Shown here one piece after another: positions 8,131-63,420 of a stretch of DNA of 64,000 nt. The stretch's first letter is position 1. Each line of letters starts with the position of its first letter. Position numbers and translations under genes: made by a program. Origin of the DNA: Methanocella sp. GTDB lineage: Archaea; Thermoproteota; Bathyarchaeia; Bathyarchaeales; Bathycorpusculaceae. The notes below the pieces were generated by a model. The model was not told the DNA's origin, searched no databases, and was given only the letters and a program-made list of their open reading frames with translations. The DNA lies in assembly GCA_050261115.1 (NCBI GenBank), contig JBLNCY010000057.1:32001-96000 (forward strand). The letters run 5' to 3'.

Positions 8131-8169
8131 TTATATATAAAGGGAGGGGGGTCCTTGGCAAAGCAAGAG
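8131..8169 (-). repeat. Dispersed intergenic element, copy 1 (partial)
   Basis: TTATATATAAAGGGAGGGGGGTCCTTGGCAAAGCAAGAG matches the reverse complement of copy 2; ~16 bp beyond the aRF1 stop. Confidence 0.85.
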
Positions 8170-8185
8170 CGTCCAGTGAATCTTT

Positions 8186-9454
8186 TTACTGTATCTTAAA
8201 GCGGAGGAAAGCAGCGATACCGCCAAACGCGTTAAGCAGCATCTGTCCCTCCTCTGTCTCAGTTGATATGACTTCCACCTCAGCGTTAGTCAGCTGCGAC
8301 AAATCCGCGATGTCATCCACAATCTCTTTTTTGTCAACGATTGTATATGAGGGCGCTTTACATCCACCGCAGGGTTTTGTGCTAAGTCCCTGTTCGAAAG
8401 CCTGCATGTCTTTGCCCTTAACTGTGTGCTGCTCCTCAAAGTTGCACGCGCCACATCTGATGGTGACCCGATACAAGTCAAGCTCTTCAGAGAGCAACAC
8501 GGTGCGTACGGCGCCGCTGTTCATGTATCGGCGTACCTCATTTTCGCCATAAGTTATGAAGCCGCTGTCATGGCCGACTTCATAGAGGAATTTCTGCATA
8601 AGCTGCTTCTCCTCTATATAGCGGACTTTTTTCATGATTTCAGGCGCTTTGTCAACAACCTCTTTAACGCCCTGCTCTTCCACATAGGCAGTGTCCACTA
8701 CATCAAGGATCTTGTTTTGCAGTTGATAATTTAGAAATGCGCCCTTCTGGAAATCATACTTTGTCGGGCCCGGACCACCCAGAATGATGCCCTTTAGGTT
8801 CTCCATAGGCAAAAAGACGTCGTTAGCGTGACCCGCTACACGGGTAAAATACTCGGTAAGCTGCATTTCACGTAAACGCTCATAACGCCTCGCTGACTGA
8901 CCACCCGCCCGTGTTTTGCCACCTACACCGCTATGCATCTGCATAACAATGTTTAGATGCTTACCCTGCAACGTAGCAATAGTGGCGTTGCTTGCATCCA
9001 CAAGTAATATACCGTAGGCTTCTTTCTCGCGAAGCATCTCTTGCAGGTGCTCAGTATGGAAGCGGCTGTCACATCGATAAAGAAAAATCCTGATAGGCTC
9101 AGGCGGAATAATAACATAGGATTCCATACGTTCCGTTCCGGGTCCACCGCCGGGCTGCGGCAGGGCGCCAGTGAAGATTACGATGCCGTGTTCACCGGGG
9201 TCTTTGAAGAGTTTGAGTTTCTGTTGCGCCTTAACGATGGCGTCAAGAACGTTTTTGCGGGTGACGTTGGATTTAATGTTGCTTGCAGTACCATACTCGT
9301 TTCGAAGAAGGTTAAGGGCGTCGCTGATCTGCTTGTCAGGTGGCACATAGATGGTGATGAGTTCAGTATGGCTGCCTTCTTTGGCGGCTAATGCGTTGAT
9401 GGTTTTTCTTAACCTGAATAGCTCAAGTGAGCTTCTTTTCTCTGTGGTACTCAA
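8186..9454 (-). CDS. prf1: Peptide chain release factor aRF1
   Basis: TASNIKS, YRCDSRF and GGQSARRYER motifs; CxxC..CxxC Zn-ribbon insert in domain C; TTG start. Confidence 0.97.
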   Translation of the reverse strand: MSTTEKRSSLELFRLRKTINALAAKEGSHTELITIYVPPDKQISDALNLLRNEYGTASNIKSNVTRKNVLDAIVKAQQKLKLFKDPGEHGIVIFTGALPQPGGGPGTERMESYVIIPPEPIRIFLYRCDSRFHTEHLQEMLREKEAYGILLVDASNATIATLQGKHLNIVMQMHSGVGGKTRAGGQSARRYERLREMQLTEYFTRVAGHANDVFLPMENLKGIILGGPGPTKYDFQKGAFLNYQLQNKILDVVDTAYVEEQGVKEVVDKAPEIMKKVRYIEEKQLMQKFLYEVGHDSGFITYGENEVRRYMNSGAVRTVLLSEELDLYRVTIRCGACNFEEQHTVKGKDMQAFEQGLSTKPCGGCKAPSYTIVDKKEIVDDIADLSQLTNAEVEVISTETEEGQMLLNAFGGIAAFLRFKIQ

Positions 9455-9540
9455 AGCGTCTTCACTGAAAGATGTTATAATTCAATACTCTACGTTAAGA
9501 TGAGGAAAATAAAAGTTCCTACTCCAAGAAAGGAGGCGGG

Positions 9541-10560
9541 TTATGCTTTTGGTGCTTTAGCTGGCTTGTCAGCTTTGGGTGCAGGAGGGTCGGGTGGTAA
9601 TCCGAGTGCTTCTTTGAGGTAGGCCTTGAATGGGCCGAGCTTGCCGCCATAGTTGCCTGCCGATATCTTGAGGATACCAGGACACATAAGTGATGCTTGG
9701 ACGCCGACCGCCATAGCTTTCTTGACTGCGTCAAGGGTTAAGCCGTTAATGACGATTTCAAGCACACTTGTACAGCCCTCGGGGACAATGCTGTCAGGTA
9801 CAATGGTTCGTAGGGTTGGGCAGTAAGTGTGGTTGGTGGAGGCTTTAAGCTTGTATTTCATGGAGCCAGCCTTGCTACCTGATCGGCACACGCCGCCTGG
9901 AAACGGCAAGATAACATCTGGAACTTGCGCGTGAATTGCATCTACTGCGGCTTCAGCTGCTGCAAGACACTCCTGGGGGGTCTTTGCAAATATCATATAG
10001 TTGCCGCCTGCTACTGCTTCGGTGGCGCCAAAGCCGTCTTCAACAAAAAAGTTGCCTTCCATCACGGGTATCTTCCAGACTTTACGTCCCCCAATCATGG
10101 CTTTACCTTGGAAGCCGTCGCCGAAGTAGCGGAGGCTGCTGCCGATAAGTAGCACACGTTTGCCTAAAAGTCCGTTGAAGGCTGCTGTGGTTGGGCAAGT
10201 CATGGTGCATTGACCGATGCGGCCCATTAGTGAGTGTTTGAGTTCAAAGCGGTCCTTGTTGTAAATTTGAATTAGGATGCCGGGTCGTTTGTCTGGGGTT
10301 TCACTGGCTGGAACGGTGCGTTCGATGGCTGCTTCAGCGGAAGCGGCGATGACGCTTGTGGCGTAGCCTGTTGTTATGGATGCAGCAGTCTGTGCCCATT
10401 TCTCGTTAGCTGCAGTGATGAGTACACGAGCTGCCCACAGCGGAAACATCTCTGCAAAGGTATCCTCAACCTTCACAACGCCATGAGGAGTATTCACTAG
10501 GTACATCTTTTCTTTTTCGTCATAACCTTGAATTTCCAGCTTGCTACTGTTCGATGACAT
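9541..10560 (-). CDS. ftr: Formylmethanofuran:tetrahydromethanopterin formyltransferase
   Basis: VEDTFAEMF, TPDKRPG, RIGQCTMTCPTTA, LRYFGDG, SGSKAGS, EIVINGL, ISAGNYGGKLG. Confidence 0.95.
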   Translation of the reverse strand: MSSNSSKLEIQGYDEKEKMYLVNTPHGVVKVEDTFAEMFPLWAARVLITAANEKWAQTAASITTGYATSVIAASAEAAIERTVPASETPDKRPGILIQIYNKDRFELKHSLMGRIGQCTMTCPTTAAFNGLLGKRVLLIGSSLRYFGDGFQGKAMIGGRKVWKIPVMEGNFFVEDGFGATEAVAGGNYMIFAKTPQECLAAAEAAVDAIHAQVPDVILPFPGGVCRSGSKAGSMKYKLKASTNHTYCPTLRTIVPDSIVPEGCTSVLEIVINGLTLDAVKKAMAVGVQASLMCPGILKISAGNYGGKLGPFKAYLKEALGLPPDPPAPKADKPAKAPKA

Positions 10561-10740
10561 GAACGAGACCTTGCCTCTTGAGTGGGCTTTTGTATAATTT
10601 AAGAGTTTTCATGTTTTTTCTGGTTTCAAGCTGTGTATTTTTATGGTATTAAACGTTGGTTTTCTTGGCATATTTAGAGTTTAGCAGGGAACGCCGAGTG
10701 CTTGCTGTTAGATTAGGGGTGTTGGATGTTGGATAGTGGT

Positions 10741-10797
10741 CTGTTGCTTTGCCGACCTACCCCCTCCCTTATATATAGAACCAACCACGGGTTCAAC
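10741..10797 (+). repeat. Dispersed intergenic element, copy 2 (reference)
   Basis: CTGTTGCTTTGCCGACCTACCCCCTCCCTTATATATAGAACCAACCACGGGTTCAAC; near-identical to 63364-63420. Confidence 0.93.
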
Positions 10798-10969
10798 TTA
10801 GCCTTGAATGCGCATGTGATTTTGCGGCTATGGGTTGGCTTCTCATTTTTTATGTCCTTCTGTAGTCACTATCCTCTACATAGCAGACTCTAGGCAAACA
10901 CCGCAAAGGGCTATGAAGCGCTTAATTTTTTAAGTCAGACAACCATATCAGAACCGCGAAGAGAGAGAT

Positions 10970-11377
10970 ATGCCGATTAAGTATTTTCCCGCCCCCGAAA
11001 TCAAAAAACAAGTTGACCAGTTAGTGCAGGAATGCGAATTCCATCATGTGGTGCCACAGTTCGTTTTCTGTGTTCGAAGCAAAGGCAGCAAAGCAAAACG
11101 CACCATAGCCCGCATTCATGGACTGGGCAAAATCTGGCAGGGCGTACTTAACCTCCCACCCAGCTACACCATCGAGGTTATTAGCGAAATCTATGACAGG
11201 ATGTCTCCCGAGGATAAGGAGCGCACGTTGATTCATGAGTTGATGCATATCCCTGGCGGCTTTAGCGGCGGCTTTAGGCCTCACAAGGGCTATGTTGAGA
11301 GGAAGAATGTTGAGGCAGTGTATAAGAAACTGCAGAGTGACCGCGCTGCGAGGCGGCAGAAGCGACTTTTTTCCTGA
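10970..11377 (+). CDS. Small HEXXH zinc metallopeptidase (archaeal/phage-type, SprT-like)
   Basis: RSKGSKA..ARIHG..Y.IEVISE..TLIHELMHIP..FSGGFRPH. Confidence 0.8.
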   Translation: MPIKYFPAPEIKKQVDQLVQECEFHHVVPQFVFCVRSKGSKAKRTIARIHGLGKIWQGVLNLPPSYTIEVISEIYDRMSPEDKERTLIHELMHIPGGFSGGFRPHKGYVERKNVEAVYKKLQSDRAARRQKRLFS

Positions 11378-19196: not shown

Positions 19197-19446
19197 CAGG
19201 CAGTCCCTAAATTAGTATAAGTCGTGTGCTAGTTGCGGGCTAAACACGCCCTAAAAGGTTTGCAACAGTAATCAATAGAATCCTGCTGGCAGCTGTTTTT
19301 AGTTTTTATCCGTTCATGTTTATTTGCCTGCTTTTCTTTTGACAGAAAGGTGCTAAATGAACCGCTACCACAGTTTTAGTATAAGAACAGCAACGATACA
19401 TCTGGTAGTGTTTAGGTAGGTTCTGCAGGGTGGTTTCCAAACCAGA

Positions 19447-19503
19447 GTTCAACCTGTGGTTGGTTCTATATATAAGGGAGGGGGTCCCTCGGCAAAGCAA
19501 CAG
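19447..19503 (-). repeat. Dispersed intergenic element, copy 3
   Basis: GTTCAACCTGTGGTTGGTTCTATATATAAGGGAGGGGGTCCCTCGGCAAAGCAACAG (reverse orientation to copy 2). Confidence 0.93.
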
Positions 19504-19683
19504 CAAAAATGCATAAGAACATAGACAGCATCTGGCGAGTGCCCGATAGAGGAGCGGCATAGTAGGGAGAACTGCTGCTACACCCTATACGTTTATGGGG
19601 ATGTATATGCCTGAAAGGTGTTGTATTATGCGCATAAGCCTTATATTTTCAAAATCAACCTTCTCTGACTGAAGGACAAACGT

Positions 19684-36004: not shown

Positions 36005-36011
36005 CAAACTG

Positions 36012-36698: not shown

Positions 36699-36721
36699 GT
36701 AATATGAAAAATGGTGATTTT

Positions 36722-37435: not shown

Positions 37436-38178
37436 ACGAAAAAACTGAAAAACTAATCGACAAGAAAGGCATCCGCGGCGACGGAAGAAAAGCGGATGAA
37501 CTTCGCCCCCTAAAACTACAGGTCGGCGTACTTCCAAACGCTGATGGATCAGCATACATTGAACACGGCAAAAACAAAATCTTAGCCGCAGCATACGGCC
37601 CAAGAGAAATGCACCCCAAGCACCTCGCACAAGCAGATCGCATGGTGCTCAGATGCAGATATCACATGGCGCCCTTTAGCGTGCAAGAACGCAAATCTCC
37701 CGCACCCTCACGCAGAGAAGTTGAATTAAGCAAAGTAATCAAAGAATCCCTTGAACCAGCCCTATTCCTTGAACTCTACCCCCGCACAGGCGTCGACGTC
37801 TTTGTGGAGGTTTTACAGGCAGACGGCGGAACCCGCTGCGCAAGCATTACCGCTGCAGCTCTAGCTATTGCTGATGCGGGTGTTCCGATGCGTGATTTAG
37901 TTGTGGCATGCGCCGCAGGCAAAGTTGAGGACCAAGTCGTCTTAGACCTCTACGACGCCGAGGACAAATTAGGCTCTGCCGATGTCCCCGTTGCTTACAT
38001 GCCTAATCTAAACGCAATCACGTTACTGCAGATGGATGGTGTTCTTTCTCCAGCTGAATTCGAGAAAGCAGTCACTATGGCTATGGATGGCTGCAAAAAG
38101 ATCTACCAAATGCAGAAAGAAGCACTTAAGACCAAATATATGGCTATTAAAGAAACTGAGAAGGAGACTGAAGAGTAA
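37432..38178 (+). CDS. rrp41: Exosome complex exonuclease Rrp41
   Basis: [35 protein letters not shown]. Confidence 0.97.
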
Positions 38179-38969
38179 TGTCATCACTTGTAACTAAAGT
38201 CAAAGTAAAGCAAATCGAAGCCCTACTAGAGAAAGGCACACGTATGGATGGTAGAGGCTTACTTGATACCCGCGAAATCAAAATCGAACAAGGCCTCATA
38301 GAGAAAGCCGAGGGCTCAGCTCGTGTGCTTTTGGGCAAAACCGAGGTGCTTGTCGGGGTTAAAGTCGAAACAGGCGAACCCTTCCCAGACACACCAAAAG
38401 AGGGCGTCATGACTGTTAACGCGGAACTTGTACCGCTTGCGTCGCCCCACTTTGAGCCAGGTCCACCTGACGAAAACAGTATTGAACTTGCTCGTGTTGT
38501 TGACCGAGGCATTAGAGAATCGCATGCTGTTGATACAGAGAAGCTGTGCATCGAGGAAGGCAAAAAAGTCTTTGTTGTGTTTGTCGATGTCTATGTCCTT
38601 AACCATGACGGCAACCTAATTGACGCTTCTGCAATCGCGGCTATGGCGGCGCTCATGAACACCAAAATGCCTAACTATGAAATCAAAGACGGCGAACTAA
38701 AGATCAAGCAAGGCTACACACCGCTACCCATGAAGAGCCACCCCGTTACAGTCACCATCGGCAAAATCAATGGTAAACTCGTTGTTGACCCTGCATTGGA
38801 AGAGGAATCCGTTATGGATTCGCGCATAACCTTTGCATCTAATGAGGACGGAAACATCTGTGCTATCCAGAAGGGTCTGTCAGGCTTTTTCTCACCGCAA
38901 CAGATTTTAGATGCCTCAAAGATTGCTCTGGACAAAGCAGTCGAATTAAGAAAGAAACTAAACTGGTGA
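38178..38969 (+). CDS. rrp42: Exosome complex component Rrp42
   Basis: RMDGR, AEGSARV.LG.T, PFPDTP, GPPDE..ELARVVDRGIRES, DGNLIDA. Confidence 0.97.
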   Translation: MSSLVTKVKVKQIEALLEKGTRMDGRGLLDTREIKIEQGLIEKAEGSARVLLGKTEVLVGVKVETGEPFPDTPKEGVMTVNAELVPLASPHFEPGPPDENSIELARVVDRGIRESHAVDTEKLCIEEGKKVFVVFVDVYVLNHDGNLIDASAIAAMAALMNTKMPNYEIKDGELKIKQGYTPLPMKSHPVTVTIGKINGKLVVDPALEEESVMDSRITFASNEDGNICAIQKGLSGFFSPQQILDASKIALDKAVELRKKLNW

Positions 38970-38975
38970 AAATAG

Positions 38976-39323
38976 TTGCCCAAGACAAAAAAAGTTGGTC
39001 CAACTCGAGGGTTCGGTCCTCGATACGGTTCCACTGTAAGAAAACGCTACGTCAAAGTCATAACTGAACTCAAAAAGCCACACAGATGCCCCCAATGCGG
39101 GTTTGTCCGTGTTAAACGCGAAAGCGTTGGCATCTGGGTATGCGGCAAATGCGCCTACACCTTCTCTGGCGGAGCGTACACTCCACACACGAAACTCGGC
39201 GCCGTTGCAAAACGTGCAGCTAAAGGCGGTCTAGAAGTTGAAGCGGCCCAAGCGCAGGTACCAGTAGTGGAAGCCGAAGAAGTTGAAGCCGCTGAAGAGG
39301 CAACTGAAGAAACCACCGAGTAA
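38976..39323 (+). CDS. rpl37ae: 50S ribosomal protein L37Ae with acidic C-terminal tail
   Basis: GPRYG..RK, CPQC..GIWVCGKC..FSGGAY. Confidence 0.96.
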   Translation: MPKTKKVGPTRGFGPRYGSTVRKRYVKVITELKKPHRCPQCGFVRVKRESVGIWVCGKCAYTFSGGAYTPHTKLGAVAKRAAKGGLEVEAAQAQVPVVEAEEVEAAEEATEETTE

Positions 39324-39377
39324 ACCTCTCTTCTTTTAACCTATTTTTATTAACTCATTCTATACTTAGGGTACGTT

Positions 39378-39635
39378 ATGTCAATTAGAACCTCAACCGC
39401 TGTCAATTTGCAGTTCACCGACGCAAAACAAATCGATATACTCCTATCCGCGTTATCTCCCGAAGCAATGGCGCCGGCGACTCGACGATCATGTGTCACC
39501 TTGAATAGGGATGGTGTGTGTTTGAGGTTAACTGTTGAAGCCGAAGACACTGTTGCGTTAAGGGCTACTCTAAACACTTATCTGCGCTGGATAAACTCCG
39601 CCCTAAACGTCCTTGAAGCGATTAAGAAAGCTTAA
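39378..39635 (+). CDS. pcc1: KEOPS complex subunit Pcc1
   Basis: AL.PE..R..L.VEAED..ALRA.LNTYLRW; canonical operon position. Confidence 0.88.
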   Translation: MSIRTSTAVNLQFTDAKQIDILLSALSPEAMAPATRRSCVTLNRDGVCLRLTVEAEDTVALRATLNTYLRWINSALNVLEAIKKA

Positions 39636-39652
39636 CTGTAATGGCGAGGGTT

Positions 39653-39708
39653 CTGTTGCTCTTGCGACCTACCCTCTCCCTTATATATAACCAACCATGG
39701 GTTTAACC
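39653..39708 (+). repeat. Dispersed intergenic element, copy 5
   Basis: CTGTTGCTCTTGCGACCTACCCTCTCCCTTATATATAACCAACCATGGGTTTAACC, 17 bp after the pcc1 stop. Confidence 0.9.
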
Positions 39709-39770
39709 TATGATTCGGGTATTTTGGCAAAATTTTAATATGTACTAAGCTAACGGCTGGCGGTAGCTAA

Positions 39771-43114: not shown

Positions 43115-43168
43115 ACACCAAGTCATTTCGTATATGCTTCAAAGTTAAAAAACGGATGAAAATTCAGC

Positions 43169-47153: not shown

Positions 47154-47188
47154 TGTTGCTATATCATGCGACCCTCCATTAGATAGAG
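47154..47188 (+). repeat. Possible degenerate copy of the dispersed element
   Basis: TGTTGCT-N12-CCTCCATTAGATAGAG versus copy 2 TGTTGCT-N14-CCTCCCTTATATATAG (13/16 in the second block). Confidence 0.5.
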
Positions 47189-47267
47189 GCGGCTTGAGTG
47201 GGACCTAGGAAGCCGTTCTGTTGGCATTAAAAATTGCTTTAATGTTTGTACTTTTATGGAAAATAGT

Positions 47268-49366: not shown

Positions 49367-52300
49367 ATGCCGTATATCAAAAAAATCGAGTTAAAAGGCT
49401 TTAAGTCTTTTGGGCCGCAAACCGTTAAGGTTAACTTTGACAAGGGTTTCACAGCGATTACTGGCCCCAACGGAAGCGGAAAATCTAACATCATGGACTC
49501 ACTGCTCTTTGCGCTAGGAGAGCTATCTACTCGCCGACTCAGGGCAGAAAACTCGGCGAAACTAATTTTCCATGGTTCTGAAAGGTCGAACCTAGATAAG
49601 GCGAAGATGGCTAAAGTCGTGGTGCAATTTGATAATTCTGATGGCTTGATGCCTGTTGATACTAACACCGTCACCATCAGCAGAGAAGTTTACCGTAACG
49701 GTCAAAGCGTCTACCGCCTCAACGGGCGCCGCATGAGCCGCGCCATGGTAACTGAGACGCTGTCAATGGCTGCGGTTAGCACTATGAGTAACAACATCCT
49801 CCCCCAGGGCACCATCACCCGACTTACCGATCTAACTTCGCTTGAGCGCCGAAAAATTATCGAGGACCTCATTGGTATTGCTCAATATGACAGTGAGAAA
49901 ACTGAGGCAGAAGAGAAGCTTCGGGCCGCAGACATTTCGATCCGCACGGCAATGGGCCGCATCGACGAAGTGCAAAAACGCCTCGATGATTTGGAGCGTG
50001 AGCGTAACCAGTTACTGCGCTATAACTTTATTCAGGCTGAGACGAAAAAGTTCCAGGCGATCAAAGTTTCCGCAGATATAGCGGTACAGAACCAAAAGGT
50101 TGCCGAGGGCGCTAAGCAGGCTGAAATTGTTACGTCTCGCCTAGACAAGTTGCGTGAGGAGCGTGACCTGCGCCGTAATCGTCGGCATGAGATCGAGGGA
50201 GACTGGCGTAAACTTAGCGGCGAAGGCTTAGAACAGGGTGGCTCGGAAGTTCTGAAAGTTCAAATCCGCATAGGTGAATTAAAATCCAAACTCACAGAGC
50301 TTAATTCCAAGATTAACTCTGGCCAGGCCAGCATAGACAGCTTCAAACGGGTTAGAGAGAACAACTTAGCCCAGCATGAAGCCTTGCATAATGAAATCCG
50401 CGAGAACCGTCTCAAGATTCGTCAGCTCAACGCTGAATTGGTAAAGATAAACGGCGAATTAGCTCAAAAGCAAGCTCAGCATGAAGCGCTTGCCAAGGAA
50501 ACTTCGGCGCTTTGGGAGAACCTTGACGGTAACAACCAGCAGATCCGCCAATTAGAGGGTCAAATAGAGGGTTATGTTAAGCGGTTGGCTTTCTTGCGTT
50601 CTGAGTATAAGCAGGATAAGGCTGCCTTGCGGCTTTGTGTTGGCAGAATCAAGAACCTCTCTGCTCGTAAGGAGAAATTTATTGCTTCACAAGCTGAAAT
50701 CGAGAAATCCCTCTCCGAGCTTGAAGCTGTTCAGCGTGACCAAAAAGCCCAACTCAAGAGCCTTGAGCATTTAATTGAGAAGAAAAAGATTCAGAAGGAA
50801 ACGGTTCAACGGGAGATTGAGGAGGCTGAAAAAATCGCTACCTCGGCTAAGGAGGCAGTGGTTGAGTTTGCGACTCAACGTGACTTGGCGGCTACGATTG
50901 CTGCAGAGGAGAAGGCGCTGCGGGGCATCGAAGAGATGGGAAACGTCGGCGCAATCGATGGCATTCATGGTCGGCTGCGGAGCCTTGTCAAGATTGATAA
51001 GAGCTTCAAGAAAGCAATCGATGCAGCATCCGCTGGCTGGCTTGATGCCCTTGTCGTTAAAGACATTGACGTCGCGTTTACCTGTACTGAGACGCTTCGT
51101 CGTATGAAACTGGGTCGGGTTAAAATCATCCCCTTGCAGGGTGTAAACAAAGCCAAGAATAAGCCGGCGCCTAAACGTGAAGGTGTCCTAGGGCCCCTAA
51201 GTAGTTTTATGAAGTATGACGCTGCTTACGAGTTGGCGGTGAACTATGTCTTCGGCGACACCATAGTTGTCTCCAACGACAAAACCGGGTTTGCGCTCTC
51301 AAACGAGGGTTACCGCGCTGTCACAGTCAACGGCGACGTCTATGAGCCGGGTGCATTTGAAAGCGGCTATTACCGGGCACCCATCGATTTCAGCACAATT
51401 ATCCCAAGCGAAAACGCCCTAAAAAGCCTCGACGAAGCCGTTAAGGCACTTCAAACCCACCTATCGCAGCGCGGCACAGACATCGCCAGCATCGAAGAGG
51501 ATCTGGATCGATCTAAAATCGAGATGGCTCGCCTGGCAGAGGGTATTGCAACCCTTGACCGTGAAATCATTCGCATACGCCGAGGCATCAAGCGCACCCA
51601 ACTCAACATTCGTCACATCGAAAAATACGGCGGCAAACTAGAGCGTGAGGCAGCCGCATTTAAGGGTCGCATGACCGTCTATAAGAATGAACGGAACAAC
51701 ATCAAGAGTAGCCTCAAGAAGTTACATACCCAGATCGCTGAACTCAGGCTAAAGACTGACGTAGCTCACATTCAAGAGCTTGAAGTCCAACGCGAAAAAT
51801 ATGGCGAAGAAGCCAACACACTGCGCCAACGTTTAGGTTCGCTGCAGACGGAGATTAACACAAACCAGTCTCAATTTGACCACGTGCTCCGAGTTGGCTA
51901 CAAGAATGCCAAAATCCAACTTACCAAAATCGATCAACAGCAAGAAAAACTGCAAAAAGAAGTCTCTGACGCCATAGCCGAACGCGATGCAATAAACACT
52001 GAGGTAGCTGCGTTAGAGAAGAGCCGTATTGAGTTATCCAATGCGGTTTTGTCTGCTAAGGAGGAGGCTAAAAAGTTTACCTCCCAAATCGATCAAATTG
52101 ATGCTGAACTGCGAACGCTTGATGCGGAGTATGAGCAGGCAGACAAATTAGCTAACCAATTGCATCTGAGTATGGAGACTGCGCAGATTCGTTTGCAGCA
52201 ACTGCAGGCTCAGCTTAAGCAGTACGGCTATGATCAGCCGCTGGAGACCAACCTGCAGCAGGTTACAGACGCTGAAACAACCATTCGTATGATGCAGTTC

Positions 52301-52927
52301 GAGATGGATCGCATCGGCGCCGTAAACCAGCTTGCGGCTCAGCACTATGTTGAGCAAATTAGTCGTTACAAAGAGCTCTCGGTTAGGTTAAACGAGCTTG
52401 AACGTGAGAAGCAGGCTATAGTTGCGTTTATGGATGAAATCGAAGCCAAAAAACGGCGGGTTTTCATGACGGCGTTCGATAAAATCAATGCCAGCTTGTC
52501 GGTATACTTTAAAAAGATGACTGGCGGCGGTAGCGCAACGCTTAAACTCGAGAATCCAGAGGAGCCATTCACTGGCGGCATCGACATGATTGTGCAGTTC
52601 CCCAACAAACCCAGCATCGTCGTGAGCGGCGCCTCAGGTGGGGAGCGCTCTATTTCAGCGGTTGCATTCATTTTTGCATTAAAAGAGTTCTCGCCAGCAG
52701 CGTTCTATGTGCTAGACGAAGTTGACGCCCACTTGGACGCCTTCCATACCACTCGGCTGGCAGAAACTCTGCTTGAAGAAGCGCAGCAGGGTAAAACGCA
52801 GTTTATTGTTATCAGTCTGCGTCCAGAAATGGTCAATAAGGCCCAGAAAGTCTACGGTGTCTATGAACGTAACGGTGTTTCTGCAGTGGTCACCGCCAAG
52901 TTCCCCCCTGAGGAGGCGGCTGCCTAA
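49367..52927 (+). CDS. smc: Chromosome segregation protein SMC
   Basis: GFKSF, Walker A GPNGSGKSN, coiled coils, hinge (GIHGRL..), signature SGGE, Walker B YVLDEVDAHLD. Confidence 0.97.
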   Translation: MPYIKKIELKGFKSFGPQTVKVNFDKGFTAITGPNGSGKSNIMDSLLFALGELSTRRLRAENSAKLIFHGSERSNLDKAKMAKVVVQFDNSDGLMPVDTNTVTISREVYRNGQSVYRLNGRRMSRAMVTETLSMAAVSTMSNNILPQGTITRLTDLTSLERRKIIEDLIGIAQYDSEKTEAEEKLRAADISIRTAMGRIDEVQKRLDDLERERNQLLRYNFIQAETKKFQAIKVSADIAVQNQKVAEGAKQAEIVTSRLDKLREERDLRRNRRHEIEGDWRKLSGEGLEQGGSEVLKVQIRIGELKSKLTELNSKINSGQASIDSFKRVRENNLAQHEALHNEIRENRLKIRQLNAELVKINGELAQKQAQHEALAKETSALWENLDGNNQQIRQLEGQIEGYVKRLAFLRSEYKQDKAALRLCVGRIKNLSARKEKFIASQAEIEKSLSELEAVQRDQKAQLKSLEHLIEKKKIQKETVQREIEEAEKIATSAKEAVVEFATQRDLAATIAAEEKALRGIEEMGNVGAIDGIHGRLRSLVKIDKSFKKAIDAASAGWLDALVVKDIDVAFTCTETLRRMKLGRVKIIPLQGVNKAKNKPAPKREGVLGPLSSFMKYDAAYELAVNYVFGDTIVVSNDKTGFALSNEGYRAVTVNGDVYEPGAFESGYYRAPIDFSTIIPSENALKSLDEAVKALQTHLSQRGTDIASIEEDLDRSKIEMARLAEGIATLDREIIRIRRGIKRTQLNIRHIEKYGGKLEREAAAFKGRMTVYKNERNNIKSSLKKLHTQIAELRLKTDVAHIQELEVQREKYGEEANTLRQRLGSLQTEINTNQSQFDHVLRVGYKNAKIQLTKIDQQQEKLQKEVSDAIAERDAINTEVAALEKSRIELSNAVLSAKEEAKKFTSQIDQIDAELRTLDAEYEQADKLANQLHLSMETAQIRLQQLQAQLKQYGYDQPLETNLQQVTDAETTIRMMQFEMDRIGAVNQLAAQHYVEQISRYKELSVRLNELEREKQAIVAFMDEIEAKKRRVFMTAFDKINASLSVYFKKMTGGGSATLKLENPEEPFTGGIDMIVQFPNKPSIVVSGASGGERSISAVAFIFALKEFSPAAFYVLDEVDAHLDAFHTTRLAETLLEEAQQGKTQFIVISLRPEMVNKAQKVYGVYERNGVSAVVTAKFPPEEAAA

Positions 52928-53652
52928 TGTCATCGACTACTACACAGACCACCAGCGTTATGCGGCGACCTTTCTATTTGCGTCCGCCTTGGAACGTCCT
53001 CTTTGAGCTTAGCAAGCTTGAGAAGCTTACCCCTTGGAATGTCAACATAGCATATTTGCTGCGTACGTTTCTTGCTGAAATGGAGAAGCATGTGGGTCCT
53101 GAGACGGTGGACTTCCGTGCATCAGGTGTAGCGTTGGATTCTTCAGCTTTAATTTATCTTATGAAATCCAAGTTACTGCTTACCCTCCAAGAACCTCCTG
53201 CTCCGCCTCCGCGTGTACCAACCGATTTCGTGCCGCCGCCACTCTTTCTGCCTCTAAGGCATGAACTCACCTCAACTACCATTCAGCACTTACTCGAAGT
53301 ATTAGATGAGGTCTTAAAGGGCGAAAAGCTCCTCAACCTAGGCCATAAAATAGAGCCGCACCCTATCCTGCCAGCAGTCACCGACTTACTGCCAAAATTT
53401 GACAAGTTCATAGCTGAGCTTGAAATTGAGGTCGATAAACTCTACAGTTATCTTATTGAGTGCACGGGCGGACAGGGCATCATTGACTTCACAACATTAA
53501 TCAAGGGCAAAACACGCATTGAAGCCTTAAGGTTGTTCATCTACCTGTTGTTCCTTGCACAGGACGGAATGGTTAGCCTCTGGCAGAACGAGGAAACCGA
53601 GGAACTCTATATAGCTGTGGGGAAATTAAAAGTTGGAAAACCAACCGCTTAA
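52927..53652 (+). CDS. scpA: Kleisin ScpA
   Basis: L.PWNVNI..L..F, DFR.SG.AL..A..KS..L, FIYLLFLA..G; lies between smc and scpB. Confidence 0.9.
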   Translation: MSSTTTQTTSVMRRPFYLRPPWNVLFELSKLEKLTPWNVNIAYLLRTFLAEMEKHVGPETVDFRASGVALDSSALIYLMKSKLLLTLQEPPAPPPRVPTDFVPPPLFLPLRHELTSTTIQHLLEVLDEVLKGEKLLNLGHKIEPHPILPAVTDLLPKFDKFIAELEIEVDKLYSYLIECTGGQGIIDFTTLIKGKTRIEALRLFIYLLFLAQDGMVSLWQNEETEELYIAVGKLKVGKPTA

Positions 53653-54475
53653 TCAAGACCAAACCACACAGGGCATACCAGCCGATACCAAAGCGCCAGC
53701 TACCGATGAACCTGCACAAGCAGAAGCGCCAAAAGACGCCCGAGCACCCCAAACTCCATTGCCCTCTCAATCCACTCAAAAGGCTGCTTCTGAGGCTGAC
53801 TCTGGCGTAGAAACTCCCGAACGCCAGGCTCGCGCACTTAATCTGCTTGAAGCCGCGCTCTACATTGCAGGTCGCCCACTTGATATAAACGAAATGTGCC
53901 AAGCCGTCGGCAGCCGAAGCAAAAAACGGGTCATCGGCTACGCTGAGGCTCTTATGGAGCAGTATAAAGCTCGAAACAGTCCTATGGAGATTTTAGCGCT
54001 CAAAGATGAGCGTTACGTAATGCAGGTTAAGGCGGAGTATACGCCGCTGATCAAGAAGCTGGTTAATAGGCCTCTTCTGTCTTCGGGTCCACTCAAAACC
54101 CTCTCCTATATTGCTTATCGTCAGCCTATTACTCAGAAGCGTGTCATTGAGGTGCGCGGTCAGCATGCCTATGGGCACGTTAAGCTGCTAAAGGACATGG
54201 GCCTAATCATGACAGAGCGCAGTGGCCGGTCGCTGGCATTGAAGACCACCGAGTACTTTGCGGACTATTTTGGTTTGACGATGGATACTTCAGGTCTAAA
54301 AAAAGACCTGCGCAAGATTTTCGGTGAAGCAATCAAGGAAGATATGGCTGCGCGGGAACGTAAAGAGGCTGAGGAAGAGAAGCAGGCACTGGCTGAGATT
54401 GAGGAATCCGATAAGCAGGAGACCCCCCAGAGGCCAAGGGCGCCGCTTAGTTTCGAGGGGCCAAATCAACCCTAA
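53633..54475 (+). CDS. scpB: SMC-Scp complex subunit ScpB
   Basis: LEAALY..G.PL, LS...LKTLSYIAYRQPITQ..RG, TT..F.DYFGL. Confidence 0.95.
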   Translation: MENQPLNQDQTTQGIPADTKAPATDEPAQAEAPKDARAPQTPLPSQSTQKAASEADSGVETPERQARALNLLEAALYIAGRPLDINEMCQAVGSRSKKRVIGYAEALMEQYKARNSPMEILALKDERYVMQVKAEYTPLIKKLVNRPLLSSGPLKTLSYIAYRQPITQKRVIEVRGQHAYGHVKLLKDMGLIMTERSGRSLALKTTEYFADYFGLTMDTSGLKKDLRKIFGEAIKEDMAARERKEAEEEKQALAEIEESDKQETPQRPRAPLSFEGPNQP

Positions 54476-58713: not shown

Positions 58714-58739
58714 ACCCTACCTAAGCCCTTCAAGTGCAA

Positions 58740-58796
58740 GTTGAACCATGGGTTGACTCTATTTATGAGGGAGGAGATCCCTCGGCAGAGCAACAG
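58740..58796 (-). repeat. Dispersed intergenic element, copy 6
   Basis: GTTGAACCATGGGTTGACTCTATTTATGAGGGAGGAGATCCCTCGGCAGAGCAACAG. Confidence 0.88.
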
Positions 58797-58945
58797 GCCG
58801 CCGCCATGACACCTCCAAGATGTTAGCAAAAAGAGTCCAAACGATGCCCTGCGTCCTCTGTGGAAACCAGCGTTAAATCCTAAAAGGGACCAAAATTATT
58901 TAATTCCACCGCCGACACTTCTCAAAGCAATTAGTCGTTAGTCAT

Positions 58946-60211
58946 TTGGAGACACAAAAGTTGGCACACCAAGAATGCATAAACTGCAAAACAACCTACA
59001 GCATAGACGAAATTGTTTACTTCTGCAGAAAATGCGGAGACATCCTAGAAATCAAATATGACCCCCAAGAGCTTGCGGAGGCGGCAAAGACTAGCGACTG
59101 GAAGACCAAGCCGCTCTCTGTCTGGCGCTACCGCCCCTTTATGCCAATCCATGACAGCACCAAACTCGTCACTTTAGGCGAAGGCGGCACAGGCCTACAC
59201 CACTCAATCCACCTAGGCAAAGAGTTAGGCGTCACAAACCTCTACGTAAAAAATGAAGGCGAAAACCCCACAGGCAGCTTTAAAGACCGAGGCATGACCG
59301 TTGGCGTAACCAAAGCCGTTGAACTCGGCGTCCGCCATGTAATCTGTGCATCCACAGGTAACACGAGTGCAGCCCTCGCAGCCTACGCAGCACGCGCCGG
59401 CACAAAATGTACCGTACTGATTCCCTCAGGCAAAATCGCCTACGGTAAACTCAGCCAAGCCATGATTCATGGCGCTAAAGTACTGCAGGTGCGCGGAAAC
59501 TTTGACGAAGCTCTAGAATTCGTGCTCAAGCTGGGCGAAACGCATAGAGACATTTACTTGCTTAACTCGATTAACCCCTTCCGTATCGAAGGCCAAAAAT
59601 CCCTCGGATACGAAATCTGTGAGCAACTAAACTATGATGCTCCAGACCGCATAATTATCCCAGTCGGCAACGCAGGCAACATCAGCGCCGTCTGGAAAGG
59701 CCTCAAAGAATTCTACGAACTAGGCCTAATCAAAAAACTCCCAAAAATGACCGGTATCCAAGCAGCGGGGTCTGCTCCCATCGCGCAAGCCATCAAAGTC
59801 AACAGTGAAAAAATCGTCCCCGTCGAACATCCCGAAACCATCGCGACCGCCATCCGCATCGGCGCACCCGTAAGCTGGAAAAAAGCCGTCAACGCCATCC
59901 GCGAATCAGGCGGCACAGCCGAGACAGTAACAGATGACGAAATCCTTGACGCCCAAAAAACATTAGCACAAACCGAGGGTATCTTTGTGGAGCCTGCATC
60001 TGCCTCGTCACTGGCAGGCCTCAAAAAACTAGTCAATAACGGAACCATACAGCGAGATGAGCGTGTCGTCTGCATCACTACAGGTCACGGCCTAAAAGAT
60101 CCAGACACCGCCATCAAACAATGCGAAAAACCCATCGAGGTAGACGCACAAATCGAAGCAATCGAGGCGGCTCTTGGCCTAAAAAAGAGCATAATTGCCC
60201 CTGCAAGGTAG
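58946..60211 (+). CDS. thrC: Threonine synthase
   Basis: N-terminal CxxC..CxxC, LGEGGT, NPTGSFKDRG, ASTGNTSA, PVGNAGN, EPASA, TGHGLKD. Confidence 0.96.
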   Translation: METQKLAHQECINCKTTYSIDEIVYFCRKCGDILEIKYDPQELAEAAKTSDWKTKPLSVWRYRPFMPIHDSTKLVTLGEGGTGLHHSIHLGKELGVTNLYVKNEGENPTGSFKDRGMTVGVTKAVELGVRHVICASTGNTSAALAAYAARAGTKCTVLIPSGKIAYGKLSQAMIHGAKVLQVRGNFDEALEFVLKLGETHRDIYLLNSINPFRIEGQKSLGYEICEQLNYDAPDRIIIPVGNAGNISAVWKGLKEFYELGLIKKLPKMTGIQAAGSAPIAQAIKVNSEKIVPVEHPETIATAIRIGAPVSWKKAVNAIRESGGTAETVTDDEILDAQKTLAQTEGIFVEPASASSLAGLKKLVNNGTIQRDERVVCITTGHGLKDPDTAIKQCEKPIEVDAQIEAIEAALGLKKSIIAPAR

Positions 60212-60217
60212 ATAGAC

Positions 60218-61246
60218 ATGAGAATAATACTGATTGGTTATGGAGTAGTCGGAAAAGGCGTAACAACAATTCTAACACGCCGATATGCCCAACAAATCAA
60301 AGACGGCTTTAACCCCAAAATCGTCGCCATAGCCGACATAGACGGCGCAATCATAAACCCCCGTGGATTGAGCCCCGAGAAACTAGAAGAAATCAAGCAG
60401 CGTGGCTACCCGATTTCTGCCGATAAAGACTTTGGTGTTCAAGGCATCAAAGCGCTTGATGTCATCAAAGAGGTTGAGGCAGAAGTCGTCGTCGAAGTCA
60501 CCCCCGTAAACATTCAAACCGCAGAACCCGCCCTCTCCCACATCACAACCGCCTTCAAAACAGGCAAACACGTCGTCACCACCAACAAAGGCCCCCTAGC
60601 ACTTGCCATGCCCGCCCTAACCGAACTAGCTGAATACAATAATGTGTATTTCCGCTTCAGTGGCACAGTCGGCGGCGGAACCCCGATGCTTGAATTCGCC
60701 AAACGCTGTCTGGCGGGCGATCGAATCTTGGGCATAAAGGGTATCCTAAACGGCACAACCAACTACATCCTAACCGAGATGGCGCAGAACCGCGTCTCCT
60801 TCCAAGACGCTCTATCTCAAGCACAAAAACTTGGATACGCAGAACGCGAGCCCTCCATGGATATCGACGGGTTTGATACATCATGCAAGACAGTTATTCT
60901 TGCTAACTGGATACTAAACCAGAAAGTCACCCTCAAAGACGTGGACCGCACAGGCATCCGCTACGTAACCCTCCAAGACCTTGATGAAGCAGCCAAACGG
61001 GGCAACACCATCAAACTCATAGGTTCAGTGGATGACAAGAGCAAGCCTACAGTCAAACCCATGGAGGTCCCAAAGACCAGCCCTATGTGTGTTAGCGGCG
61101 TTCTTAACGCAGTGACTTATCAATGTGAGTTCGCCGCTGAGCAGACAATCATCGGTCGGGGTGCCGGTTCGATTGAGACGGCAGGTGCAGTTTTAAGAGA
61201 CCTCTTAGACATAAGACATAAGTTAGCATCTAGACTACTAACGTAG
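60218..61246 (+). CDS. hom: Homoserine dehydrogenase
   Basis: GYGVVG, HVVTTNKGP, TVGGGTP, GILNGTTNYIL, GYAE..P..DIDG.D, GRGAG..ETA. Confidence 0.96.
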   Translation: MRIILIGYGVVGKGVTTILTRRYAQQIKDGFNPKIVAIADIDGAIINPRGLSPEKLEEIKQRGYPISADKDFGVQGIKALDVIKEVEAEVVVEVTPVNIQTAEPALSHITTAFKTGKHVVTTNKGPLALAMPALTELAEYNNVYFRFSGTVGGGTPMLEFAKRCLAGDRILGIKGILNGTTNYILTEMAQNRVSFQDALSQAQKLGYAEREPSMDIDGFDTSCKTVILANWILNQKVTLKDVDRTGIRYVTLQDLDEAAKRGNTIKLIGSVDDKSKPTVKPMEVPKTSPMCVSGVLNAVTYQCEFAAEQTIIGRGAGSIETAGAVLRDLLDIRHKLASRLLT

Positions 61247-61265
61247 AGAAAGGCGAAAAGAAATC

Positions 61266-62672
61266 ATGAAAATTGTTATGAAGTTCGGTGGAACCAGCGT
61301 AGGCACAGGCGAGAACATACGCCACGTGGCCGACTTAGTTGCACAGTACAGCAAAGAACACAAAATCGCCGTCGTCGTCTCGGCACTTGCAGGCGTCACT
61401 AACAGCCTAATCGAAACCGGCTGCAAGGCACAGAAAAGCGACCAAAAAAACATCGAAGCATTCACCTCTAGCCTGCTAAAGAAGCACACAGACGCCATAG
61501 CCACGGCGATTACAAGTAAAAGCATCCAAAAAGAAGTAACCGAAATAACACAAAAAAGCATCGCCGAACTAGAAAAAGTCCTAACAGGCATCTGCTATGT
61601 GGGCGAATTAACCCCGAAATCAAAAGACTACGTAATGTCGTTTGGCGAACGCCTCTCTGCACCAATAGTTTGGGGAGCAATCAAAGACCACAACATACAG
61701 AGCCAATTCTTCACCGGCAAAGAATCAGGCATAGTTACCGACTCCAACTTTGGCGAAGCAGAACCCCTCATGAACTACACAACCCACCTACTACGTGAAC
61801 GATTGGAGCCTTTGATGGAGCAAGGCACTATCCCAGTTGTCACAGGCTTCATAGCCGCAAACCAAGACGGCATCGTAACCACCGTCGGCCGCGGAGGCAG
61901 CGACTACACAGCCACCATACTCGGCGTAGCCCTAAAAGCCGACGAGGTATGGATATGGACAGACGTAGACGGCATCATGACCACCGATCCCAAACTTGTC
62001 CCAGCTGCACGCATGCTACCCCAACTAAGCTATCAAGAGGCAGCCGAAATGGCTATCTTCGGCGCCAAAGCCATGCATCCACGAGCTCTCGGCCCAGTAT
62101 CTAAAGAAAACATACCTGTGCGCATAAGAAACACCCAAAACCCATCCAATATGGGCACACTAATCACAAAGGCGCCGGCGGCTAACGAGACTAAACCCGT
62201 AAAGGCAGTTGCCATGATTAAAGACGTCGGTATGCTAAACGTCTATGGCGCTGGCATGGTGGGTGCGCCGGGTAGCTATGCAAAGGTCTTTGATGTGCTT
62301 GGCAGAAATAACATAAACGTCATGATGATTTCCGCCGCTGCATCCGAAGCCAACATATCCATGATAGTGAAACGCTCAGTGCTGGGCAGAGCCGTAAGCA
62401 ATATCGAAATCGCATTGCAGGAAAGAGGCGGCATAGTCAGTGAAGTCACAACCGAAGATGACGTTGCAGTTATCGCGGTTATGGGTGCTCACATGAAAGG
62501 TACGCTGGGTGTGGCGTCGAAAATCTTTAGCATCGTAGCCAAGATGGGTATAAACATCCGCATGATCGCACAAGGCAGCTCCGAACTCAACATCAGCTTT
62601 GTTGTGAAGGAGAAGGATGGCGCTGCCGTCGTTAGAGCAATCCATGAAGAGTTTAACCTCGACAAAGCCTAA
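61266..62672 (+). CDS. lysC: Aspartate kinase (with ACT domains)
   Basis: VMKFGGTSV, VVVSA, GRGGSDYTA, WTDVDGI.T.DP, GAK.MHP, QGSSE.NIS. Confidence 0.95.
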   Translation: MKIVMKFGGTSVGTGENIRHVADLVAQYSKEHKIAVVVSALAGVTNSLIETGCKAQKSDQKNIEAFTSSLLKKHTDAIATAITSKSIQKEVTEITQKSIAELEKVLTGICYVGELTPKSKDYVMSFGERLSAPIVWGAIKDHNIQSQFFTGKESGIVTDSNFGEAEPLMNYTTHLLRERLEPLMEQGTIPVVTGFIAANQDGIVTTVGRGGSDYTATILGVALKADEVWIWTDVDGIMTTDPKLVPAARMLPQLSYQEAAEMAIFGAKAMHPRALGPVSKENIPVRIRNTQNPSNMGTLITKAPAANETKPVKAVAMIKDVGMLNVYGAGMVGAPGSYAKVFDVLGRNNINVMMISAAASEANISMIVKRSVLGRAVSNIEIALQERGGIVSEVTTEDDVAVIAVMGAHMKGTLGVASKIFSIVAKMGINIRMIAQGSSELNISFVVKEKDGAAVVRAIHEEFNLDKA

Positions 62673-62772
62673 CTTTTCCATTTTTGTTTCTGTGTGCTTG
62701 CAGGCACAACTATTTTTATTTCTTGAATATCTGAACCCTTTAGTTTTAGCAGTAGAATACTGGGAGTTATGA

Positions 62773-63255
62773 ATGCGTAACTTACTTCGTAACCGGAAAG
62801 GCTCTGGGAAGATTATTGCTTTAGTTCTCATCATAATCGTTGTCTTTGCGTTGGTGAGTTTGGCTATCTACTATTATTATGCGTACAATAACCTGACTTT
62901 CAATTTAAACCAAGTTAGGTTAGGCGAGGTAAGCTCGAATTCTCTAACGCTAAATGTCCAGATCGCCATTAACAACACGTATCTGCTACCAGTTTACATC
63001 CCAAGCGGCAGCTTCACGCTGTACCTTAATGATCAACGGCTGGGAACGGGCACGTTTAACTCGATAACAGTCGGAGGAAACAATCAAGGCATAGTTACAG
63101 TGCCAGTTACAATTAATGCTGCTGACGTTCCGTCTGCTGCTTTCGGTGTGCCAACAGGCGGCGGCACGGTGACTTTAACTGTTCAGGGCTCGGCTAATCT
63201 GGTGGTGTTTAGTGTACCATTCAATGCTACTCTCTACAATGCACAATTAACTTAG
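62773..63255 (+). CDS. Membrane-anchored LEA_2/WHy-domain-like protein
   Basis: N-terminal TM, then beta-sandwich pattern L.V.I.INN...P.YIP...F.LYLN...LG.G. Confidence 0.7.
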   Translation: MRNLLRNRKGSGKIIALVLIIIVVFALVSLAIYYYYAYNNLTFNLNQVRLGEVSSNSLTLNVQIAINNTYLLPVYIPSGSFTLYLNDQRLGTGTFNSITVGGNNQGIVTVPVTINAADVPSAAFGVPTGGGTVTLTVQGSANLVVFSVPFNATLYNAQLT

Positions 63256-63363
63256 GCAACTGCCCAGCAGCCGTAAGTATCCTCTATGATGTATCTGAAA
63301 AAGATTACTTGTCCACTGAAGACTTGCTGTTTTGGGTGACGTAGTGGTAATTCGGCTGCTGTT

Positions 63364-63420
63364 CTGTTGCTTTGCCGAGCTACCCTTCCCTTATATATAG
63401 AACCAACCAAGGGTTGAACC
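63364..63420 (+). repeat. Dispersed intergenic element, copy 7
   Basis: CTGTTGCTTTGCCGAGCTACCCTTCCCTTATATATAGAACCAACCAAGGGTTGAACC. Confidence 0.93.

Follow-up and report, generated by a model that had tools for sequence, protein, structure and literature searches.

Prokaryotic genomes commonly contain small repeats dispersed between their genes. The bacterial REP/BIME/REPIN and Correia-type repeats are short, intergenic and expanded in particular lineages, and sometimes carry promoter or terminator signals. 'Mobile promoters' are identical upstream regions that stand before unrelated genes. In eukaryotes, convergent CTCF sites mark the anchors of cohesin loops, and close divergent CTCF pairs are common at the shared domain boundaries of vertebrates. 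Here we describe a short repeat from a member of the Bathyarchaeia, an abundant and barely cultured group of archaea. It was found in a 64,000-nt stretch of contig JBLNCY010000057.1 (positions 32,001 to 96,000), which we refer to as the window. The source genome, called G000 below, is a metagenome-assembled genome (MAG) of 2.15 Mb in 66 contigs; C-numbers denote contigs. A preliminary description of the window had noted that copies of the repeat form inward-pointing pairs around three blocks of housekeeping genes: aRF1 with ftr, psmA to pcc1, and thrC-hom-lysC with a gene for an LEA protein. We call the CAACAG end of the repeat its tip, and a copy is designated + when its G-rich strand lies on the + strand.

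As described in PMC6979391, CTCF sites have partly been spread by expansions of short interspersed nuclear elements and transposable elements. The archaeal repeat resembles CTCF sites in that it is asymmetric, that its relative orientation rather than its relation to the gene strand is non-random, that convergent pairs dominate, that it is dispersed by lineage-specific repeat expansions, and that an SMC complex is encoded in the genome. It differs in that the enclosed islands are ~5 kb long, isolated and ~20 kb apart instead of tiling the genome, in that close divergent pairs are nearly absent, in that its core is a TATA box, and in that it is known here from sequence alone. In Thermococcus, DNA-bound TrmBL2 acts as a roadblock that stalls Smc-ScpAB at tens of loci with AT-rich sequence, and the chromosome is described as having few large domains (PMC11840125). 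SMC and ScpB are likewise encoded in our window, but the sections of PMC11840125 used here describe neither an oriented repeated motif nor a convergent rule, and the Bathyarchaeia belong to another lineage. G000 does encode a protein with a TrmB domain; nothing ties it to the repeat.

Like the REP/BIME/REPIN and Correia-type repeats, the archaeal repeat is short, non-coding and intergenic, is present in about 100 copies and often directly follows a stop codon or separates convergent genes. Unlike REP and REPIN sequences it is accompanied by neither RAYT nor terminal inverted repeats (TIR) or target-site duplications (TSD), its pairs are kilobases apart rather than adjacent doublets, and its core is a TATA box, not a GC-rich hairpin. 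With mobile promoters it shares the spread of a promoter-like module to numerous unrelated loci of one genome, but half of its copies are directed toward 3′ ends, a canonical TFB-recognition element (BRE) is absent, and the pairing is convergent and long-range. Our search of the literature found no description of such a repeat, or of convergent repeat pairs, in archaea. To our knowledge, no prokaryotic repeat forms kilobase-spaced convergent pairs regardless of gene strand.

Neighboring Copies Are Often Paired Tip to Tip

A profile built from the seven window copies detected 107 copies in G000 (counted at E<1e-3). Among 71 neighbor pairs, 29 are inward (tips facing each other), 22 outward and 20 tandem, where ~18/18/35 would be expected at random, and 29 or more inward pairs were reached in 0 of 10,000 orientation shuffles. 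Inward pairs are also more closely spaced, with a median of 5.4 kb (smallest ~1 kb) compared with 19 kb for outward pairs, and the neighbor pairs less than 10 kb apart comprise 24 inward, 1 outward and 7 tandem. The pattern recurs in two further species. G113, in which copies were counted with the model trained on G000, has 109 matches and 86 neighbor pairs (32/25/29 inward/outward/tandem, P(inward)=0.0005); the median spacings are 11.9 kb inward and 23.8 kb outward (Mann-Whitney p=1e-4), and the pairs below 10 kb number 13/1/5. On contig C9 of G064 (557 kb), a species-specific profile found 32 copies. Here all pairs together divide into 10/10/11, the inward pairs are the closer ones (median 6.6 against 19.3 kb, p=0.002), and the pairs below 10 kb number 8/2/4. 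Summed over the three genomes, the 65 close pairs are 45 inward, 4 outward and 16 tandem (chi-square p=1.4e-15; inward against outward, binomial p=8e-10). This is the convergent excess among neighbors that characterizes CTCF-like oriented loop anchors or SMC barriers, and the prediction in the preliminary description that convergent neighbors lie closer than divergent ones held in G000, in G113 and on the G064 contig. A model termed R1 gave 3–19 copies in each of G102, G090, G075, G086 and G078, too few for testing neighbor orientation, since every species carries a variant of its own.

With only seven copies in the window and a MAG of 66 contigs, chance or an assembly artefact had to be considered, and the preliminary description had stated that chance could not be excluded. 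The genome-wide shuffles and the recurrence of the pattern in G113 and on the G064 contig do exclude it, and chance is refuted at the level of statistics. As for the assembly, the psmA stretch was sampled as words, with both of its copies covered. Of these words, 98–100% were found in 13 DNA runs, which makes misassembly unlikely; at least half were found in 18 runs. The number of copies near contig ends is about that expected (a rough count by eye). We thus give next to no credence to this explanation and conclude that the observation first made in the window is real and far beyond chance.

The starts of successive inward pairs were seen to lie 24–41 kb apart on two contigs of G000 (C6 at 1143, 25165, 54222 and 95206; C57 at 40106, 66963 and 90731), which may hint at a regular spacing.

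Anatomy of the Repeat

The consensus of the window copies is TCAAGYnnRGTTSAACCnnTGGTTGRYTC-TATATATA-AGGGAGGGGGTnnnTCGGCARAGCAACAG. Its constant core, TATATATA-AGGGAGGGGG-N-GGCAAAGCAACAG, consists of a perfect TATA box that is almost invariant among copies, a G-rich box and a conserved tip of ~20 nt. Two types of copy have this 45-nt TATA-G-box-tip module in common. Type 1 (~70 nt, ~65 copies) carries an imperfect 9-3-9 palindrome (AGTTSAACC-N3-GGTTGRYTC; module A) directly upstream of the TATA box. In type 2 (~130 nt) the palindrome is replaced by a conserved A/C-rich module of ~60 nt in fixed register (CTGCAGCCACACAGCC..AAAACCAGCAAACACCCAGACATACC..CTGCGGTTGYTGAGTC). The type-2 module was found in 24 placed copies of G000 (e.g., C57:17663-17775) and at 4 weak matches, all outside the window. 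In two double-headed copies, a single TATA box is flanked by G-box/tip arms to the left and to the right (G000:C22:33645-33711 and G102:C9:26011-26076); such a copy amounts to a perfect outward pair at zero distance. The ~60 nt beyond the tail of window copy 7 (63435-63495) resemble G000:C6:25105-25164, which lies beyond the tail of the copy at C6:25165, so that some copies carry an extra outer module.

Rfam gave 0 matches at the gathering score in the 64-kb window, and RNAalifold found no consensus RNA structure on either strand among 20 type-2 copies. A hairpin of the G-box with a downstream CCCTC was rejected, as only some variants have it, and so was a T-run at the tail edge as a general terminator signal, as it occurs in only ~8 of 46 full copies (by eye).

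Relation to Genes, Promoters and Transcripts

The copies lie between genes: 100 of 107 are intergenic in a genome that is 81% coding according to our open reading frame (ORF) caller. By type of intergenic region, 28 copies are in convergent, 41 in tandem and 23 in divergent ones. In tandem regions 19 copies have the same direction as the genes and 22 the opposite one, and of 96 tips 42 are directed toward a gene's 5′ end and 54 toward a 3′ end (p=0.26); the copies directed at a 5′ end are mostly 44–340 nt from the start codon. Several inward blocks carry sizeable genes on both strands. The polarity of a copy thus correlates with its partner copy and not with the direction of transcription. Since the direction of the tip is independent of the gene strand, a role at the level of DNA rather than of the transcript is argued for. 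A promoter or terminator should follow the gene strand, which the repeat does not, and a plain promoter or terminator therefore fits poorly.

In the promoters of G000, TATA-like sites are preceded by an A-rich BRE at positions −5 to −3 (A = 0.42–0.45), with a peak 40–55 nt before start codons. No such BRE is found on either side of the TATA box of the repeat, where GGTTC, GACTC or GAGTC stands on one side and CCTCCCT on the other. Compared with an archaeal core promoter, the repeat has the TATA box, lacks the BRE and does not point at a gene that it would serve. Upstream of psmA, a promoter-proximal stretch (window 35185-35275, GGGTTTTSCTTTTATA...) is conserved in 11 of 11 relatives, and the remaining intergenic DNA is unalignable. 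Indeed, intergenic DNA cannot be aligned with the closest species, at ~88% coding identity. As the only upstream stretch conserved in the 11 relatives lies downstream of the copy, the psmA copy is distinct from the gene's own promoter, in agreement with the preliminary description. A panhandle in the mRNA, formed by copies in the 5′ and 3′ untranslated regions pairing with each other, was rejected because the psmA promoter is downstream of its copy and many blocks have genes on both strands.

RNA data were unstranded Logan contigs from four metatranscriptomes, which are uninformative on whether copies start, stop or pass transcription. The bin that holds the copy upstream of psmA (34640-35303) has little cover, and one contig ends at 39624, within pcc1. 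Contigs of the S13 operon begin at 43150-43157 in three runs, and the fourth run has an adapter-bearing loose end at 43157.

Gene Content of the Enclosed Islands

We compared 20 inward blocks outside the window with 20 random 5-kb control segments. Pfam names of information processing or the cell cycle were assigned to 33 of 99 proteins in the blocks and to 11 of 80 in the controls (Fisher p=0.003). Among them are RNA polymerase subunits and an elongation factor (Rpb6, Rpb7, Spt4), ribosomal proteins (S27a, S24e, S6e, S3Ae, L18Ae), translation factors and related proteins (eIF2-gamma, eIF6, aIF5B, Pelota, diphthamide synthase, NFACT) and proteins of tRNA and RNA processing (two aminoacyl-tRNA synthetases, tRNA intron endonuclease twice, Dus, a MiaB-like enzyme, archease, LSm, Rio2). 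Replication is represented by PCNA, primase, a DNA-polymerase small subunit, Cdc6 and SSB, folding and targeting by thermosome, prefoldin and FtsY, and cell division by CdvA and a Vps4-like ATPase. The three window blocks have the same kind of content. The enrichment in information-processing genes supports the preliminary description, in which housekeeping blocks are bracketed. The presence of genes on both strands in several blocks shows that these are not always single operons.

Distribution Among Relatives and Gene Order

The R1 model matches 25 of 101 genomes of the genus, including G000. An exact 13-nt core occurs 41 times in G000, 66 in G064, 47 in G069, 33 in G113, 25 in G102, 19 in G075 and 6 in G050, and 0–3 times in the other 113 of 120 genomes; a reversed control pattern was found once in all genomes together. 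Each species has its own homogeneous variant, that of G064 being TTTGTTCTTTATATAAGGGAGGGGAGGTACACTTTGAGACGTCGCGTGGTTCCAGC, which implies that copies spread or are homogenized within lineages. On G064:C9 we found 46 adjacencies of a repeat with a gene end that has a G000 orthologue, one of them at a G000 contig edge. Of the remaining 45, 9 also adjoin a copy in G000, 8 of them with the same polarity (background 194/4054, p=2e-4).

A few positions can be followed through several genomes. The psmA to pcc1 block has copies on both sides in G000 and in G064/L207, an upstream copy only in G078, L235 and L239, and a downstream copy only in L237 and L254. Among 80 metagenome psmA loci, an upstream copy was present in 3 of the 64 with enough DNA and a downstream copy in 3 of 31, and all 6 are directed inward. 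The ftr-aRF1 block has both copies also in L069. In G000 (C43:32598-34204) as well as in G064 (C9:402021-403676), the 3′ end of a TFB gene is flanked by a copy whose tip points at the gene, one of the few conserved positions.

Gene order was compared between G064:C9 and G000 using 399 orthologues from reciprocal best hits. None of the 26 element-bearing adjacencies of determinable status is conserved, compared with 40 of 76 element-free gaps of at least 150 nt (36 broken; Fisher p=2e-7). Overall, 109 of 348 determinable adjacencies are broken, about one break per 5 kb, and the order is scrambled to roughly operon size. With gene order so near to saturation and a share of breaks as expected between operons, the association may only mean that copies lie between operons. 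The synteny breaks between related MAGs that the preliminary description expected do coincide with copies, but in this comparison, the closest available, they do not establish cause and may merely reflect where copies are placed. The flanks of 30 G064 loci usually map to different places in G000, several of them beside G000 copies, and one G064 copy lies between genes whose G000 orthologues each adjoin a different copy. In the element-free G014, the genes to the left, the psmA block and the gene to the right are in the same order as in G000 (one block compared). The copies were therefore added around resident genes, which weakens the proposal of the preliminary description that the repeats let operon blocks be shuffled. 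Inward blocks as units of rearrangement were rejected, as their interior break fractions are like those of other intervals.

Tests for Known Mobile Elements

By inspection of the consensus of 13 copies and of 46 full copies, the tail (TCAAG..GTTSAACC) shows no complementarity to the tip GGCAAAGCAACAG, so that TIR are lacking. No TSD was found among 40 full copies at all offsets and k=3–6, the best result being a 3-mer shared in 4 of the 40 copies, where 0.6 would be expected, and none was seen at two pairs inspected by eye. An autonomous partner was not found: apart from one tandem cluster of small ORFs, no protein family has more than two full-length copies in the assembly, where a MAG can miss insertion sequence elements. 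Pfam matches of the 20 blocks, the three window blocks and their neighbors (99 + 34 proteins) include no transposase or recombinase, and hence none of the site-specific recombinases that go with invertible segments such as invertons and shufflons. RAYT (PF01797) was found in 0 of 5 element-rich genomes (G000, G064, G113, G069, G102), and in 6 of 14 known genomes in a control search. Adjacent inverted doublets of the REP/REPIN kind were not found in G000. We also looked for an empty site, with the outer flanks adjacent in a relative, as expected of a cassette or composite transposon, and did not find one in G014 at the psmA block. The repeat is neither a classical MITE (a miniature transposable element with inverted repeats) nor a REP/REPIN.

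Members of an inward pair are no more alike than expected for type-matched pairs (identity 0.749, expected 0.752, P=0.61), which gives no sign of a common origin of the pair members. These belong to the same subfamily in 21 of 29 pairs, where 52% would be expected (p=0.02).

Possible Roles of the Repeat

We tentatively favor a reading in which the copies are repeat-borne, orientation-dependent boundary elements around ~5-kb housekeeping islands, which we consider possible rather than probable. The repeat is in this reading a lineage-specific, actively spreading non-coding element. Each copy would be a putative protein-binding site that acts as an orientation-dependent boundary on the DNA, and two copies placed tip to tip would delimit an island of 2.5–10 kb with mostly core housekeeping genes and insulate it from the ~20 kb that flank it. 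What the barrier would stop is a machine moving along the DNA, with Smc-ScpAB, or an RNA polymerase on its way into or out of the island, as candidates. As such a machine would distinguish inside from outside, convergent pairs would be common and close divergent pairs almost absent. In favor of this reading we count the pairing itself, its independence of gene strand, the intergenic placement, the content of the islands, the inward flanking of the same islands in other species with variants of their own, the unchanged gene order around the psmA block in G014, and the Thermococcus precedent together with SMC and ScpB in the window. No difference between inward and outward pairs would be expected from recombination between copies or from simple protein bridging, and the close pairs are 45 against 4. 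We infer that the difference points to a one-sided approach, that is a tracking machine, or else to an insertion mechanism that reads a pre-existing asymmetry between inside and outside. It is quite unlikely, in our judgment, that the analogy extends to a full archaeal counterpart of convergent CTCF sites, in which a factor on the TATA/G-box core would stop Smc-ScpAB or RNA polymerase from one side, convergent pairs would close insulated domains, and the sites would be renewed in each lineage by waves of repeats. The interpretation given in the preliminary description, of boundary or loop-anchor sites or else of inverted ends for shuffling, is thus partly supported.

Several findings weigh against boundary elements. 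Just 7 of 120 genomes have the core in abundance and most congeners are without the repeat, so any function must be dispensable or lineage-specific. Of the 45 G064:C9 adjacencies, 36 are without a copy in G000, and such unshared positions look more like a selfish repeat than like fixed architecture. Synteny is no better preserved inside inward pairs than elsewhere (break fraction 0.25, against 0.225 for outward and 0.32 for tandem pairs). A dedicated TFB paralogue was considered and rejected, as counts of TFIIB repeats do not track the abundance of the repeat (6 in G000, 4 in G064, 4 in G102 and 10 in G113, which are element-rich; 8 in G014 and 4 in G008, which are element-free). The genes were called by a home-made ORF scorer that missed small ones such as pcc1, and the functional sorting of Pfam names was subjective, by the analyst. 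Finally, protein binding, barrier action, the tracking machine and a benefit to the cell are all steps that we infer.

A selfish dispersed repeat without cellular function would account for the patchy, species-specific expansions, for the homogeneous variant of each species and for the large share of gene-end adjacencies that G064 and G000 do not have in common. Insertion and orientation would then be steered by a pre-existing asymmetry at the edges of highly active gene islands, or copies would be born as inverted pairs, as the excess of pairs of one subfamily might suggest, and the pairing would report the insertion mechanism or chromosome structure, not the role of the copies. Against this stand the lack of a transposase or multi-copy protein family in the assembly and of a transposase in the 23 blocks, the lack of TSD and RAYT, the pair members that are no more alike than type-matched random pairs, and the two operons, those of psmA and of ftr-aRF1, that are flanked with the same polarity in several species. 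Such a repeat seems to us a rather unlikely explanation of the pairing. The anatomy of the repeat could also be that of a mobile promoter module, with TBP/TFB bound to the TATA and G-box and firing toward the tip, and with the palindromic module A as an operator for a regulator; an island would then have a promoter at either end, one of them sense and one antisense. The palindrome directly upstream of a perfect TATA box is followed by ~37 conserved nt that end at the expected start site, conservation in G064 spans about −35 to +20 around that point, the double-headed copies have one TATA box with arms on both sides, and 5′-directed copies mostly lie 44–340 nt from the start codon. However, tips toward 3′ ends are no rarer than tips toward 5′ ends (54 and 42), the TATA box lacks the A-rich BRE of the genome's own promoters, psmA has its own conserved promoter downstream of its copy, and the near-absence of close outward pairs is left unexplained, so that we regard promoter modules, too, as somewhat improbable.

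Recombination sites or transposon-like ends, acting by inversion, cassette exchange or as the ends of mobilizable blocks, would have driven the scrambling of gene order in the genus. That all 26 determinable element-bearing adjacencies are synteny breaks, that the flanks of G064 loci map to different G000 places, several of them by copies, and that one G064 copy joins neighbors of two different G000 copies would all follow, and an exchange of sequence among copies is implied by the finding that orthologous copies have the variant of their own species. With gene order near saturation, however, the breaks may mean no more than a position between operons, and the psmA block is in the same order in the element-free G014. 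The interiors of inward blocks are not special, no recombinase or transposase lies in or beside the 23 blocks, and no TSD was found at single copies or at the two pairs inspected. Since recombination alone would also make close inward and close outward pairs equally frequent, we consider it unlikely.

The pairing shows that something can tell the 'inside' of ~5-kb stretches on this archaeal chromosome from their 'outside'. Should the copies bind a factor that confronts a tracking machine, they would constitute a sequence-encoded, orientation-dependent domain boundary outside eukaryotes, and repeat expansion would have rewired chromosome organization in archaea. We know of no earlier example of such a boundary. 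Should the pairing instead be a by-product of spread, it would expose a new mechanism of mobility, for which neither TIR, TSD, RAYT nor a transposase was found. Either way, the copies are concrete, testable sites in the Bathyarchaeia.

Features of the Window

All seven clear copies were found at the places and in the orientations given in the preliminary description (+, −, +, +, −, +, −), as were the three inward pairs. The copies and blocks are listed in Table 1, with protein names based on Pfam. Measured from tip to tip, the pairs enclose 2570 bp (aRF1 and ftr), 4626 bp (psmA to pcc1) and 4566 bp (thrC-like gene to LEA_2), which agrees with the sizes first reported. The tip faces the enclosed block in all six copies of the three pairs, and the distances, 149–250 nt before the start codon for upstream copies and 16, 17 and 108 nt after the last stop for downstream copies, match the ranges of 150–250 and 16–110 bp described before. 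Copy 3 was said to have no partner, and none was detected.

Table 1. Copies of the repeat, enclosed blocks and further genes of the window.
Feature	Positions	Strand	Description	Relation to genes
Copy 1	8123-8176	+	Truncated: TATA, G-box and tip, without module A; E=3.7e-9	Tip 16 nt from aRF1 stop, directed into block 1
Block 1	8186-10560	-	eRF1-family release factor (aRF1), 8186-9454; formylmethanofuran-tetrahydromethanopterin (H4MPT) formyltransferase (FTR), 9541-10560; Pfam	
Copy 2	10732-10813	-	Full type 1; E=1e-22	Tip 180 nt upstream of ftr start, directed into block 1
Copy 3	19434-19507	+	Full type 1	180 nt upstream of aminotransferase gene
Copy 4	34961-35030	+	Full type 1	250 nt upstream of psmA, upstream of its own conserved promoter
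Block 2	35276-39635	+	PsmA, SBDS, Rrp4, Rrp41, Rrp42, L37ae (38976-39323), Pcc1 (39378-39635); Pfam and sequence	
Copy 5	39645-39716	-	Full type 1	Tip 17 nt after pcc1 stop, directed into block 2
Degenerate copy	47154-47189	-	Weak; E=0.068 in the 64-kb search	Downstream of S13..RpoN operon
SMC	49367-52927	+	Pfam; not part of the repeat	
ORF in ScpA position	52927-53652		Not part of the repeat	Between SMC and ScpB
ScpB	53633-54475		Pfam; not part of the repeat	
Copy 6	58727-58799	+	Full type 1	149 nt upstream of thrC
Block 3	58946-63255	+	Threonine synthase-like PALP enzyme (thrC), homoserine dehydrogenase (hom), aspartate kinase (lysC), LEA_2 protein; Pfam	
Copy 7	63360-63434	-	Full type 1	Tip 108 nt after LEA_2 stop, directed into block 3

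The distance of copy 5 rests on the recognition of Pcc1 (Pfam PF09341), an ORF of only 85 aa after L37ae that is easily overlooked and was not called by the ORF scorer. Two degenerate copies had been proposed to enclose the S13..rpoN operon in the same way as the clear pairs. The downstream one was detected weakly, but its proposed partner at 42918 gave no match in the window search even at E<=200. Of the smc-scpA-scpB genes reported from the window, SMC and ScpB are supported by Pfam; the ORF between them, in the position expected of ScpA, has no Pfam match at E<=1e-5. All three lie on the + strand and serve as context for a loop-extrusion reading. Just outside block 1 lies an ORF of 135 aa (10970-11377) with a match to the Pfam family 'Putative phage metallopeptidase' (PF18894, E=7e-21).

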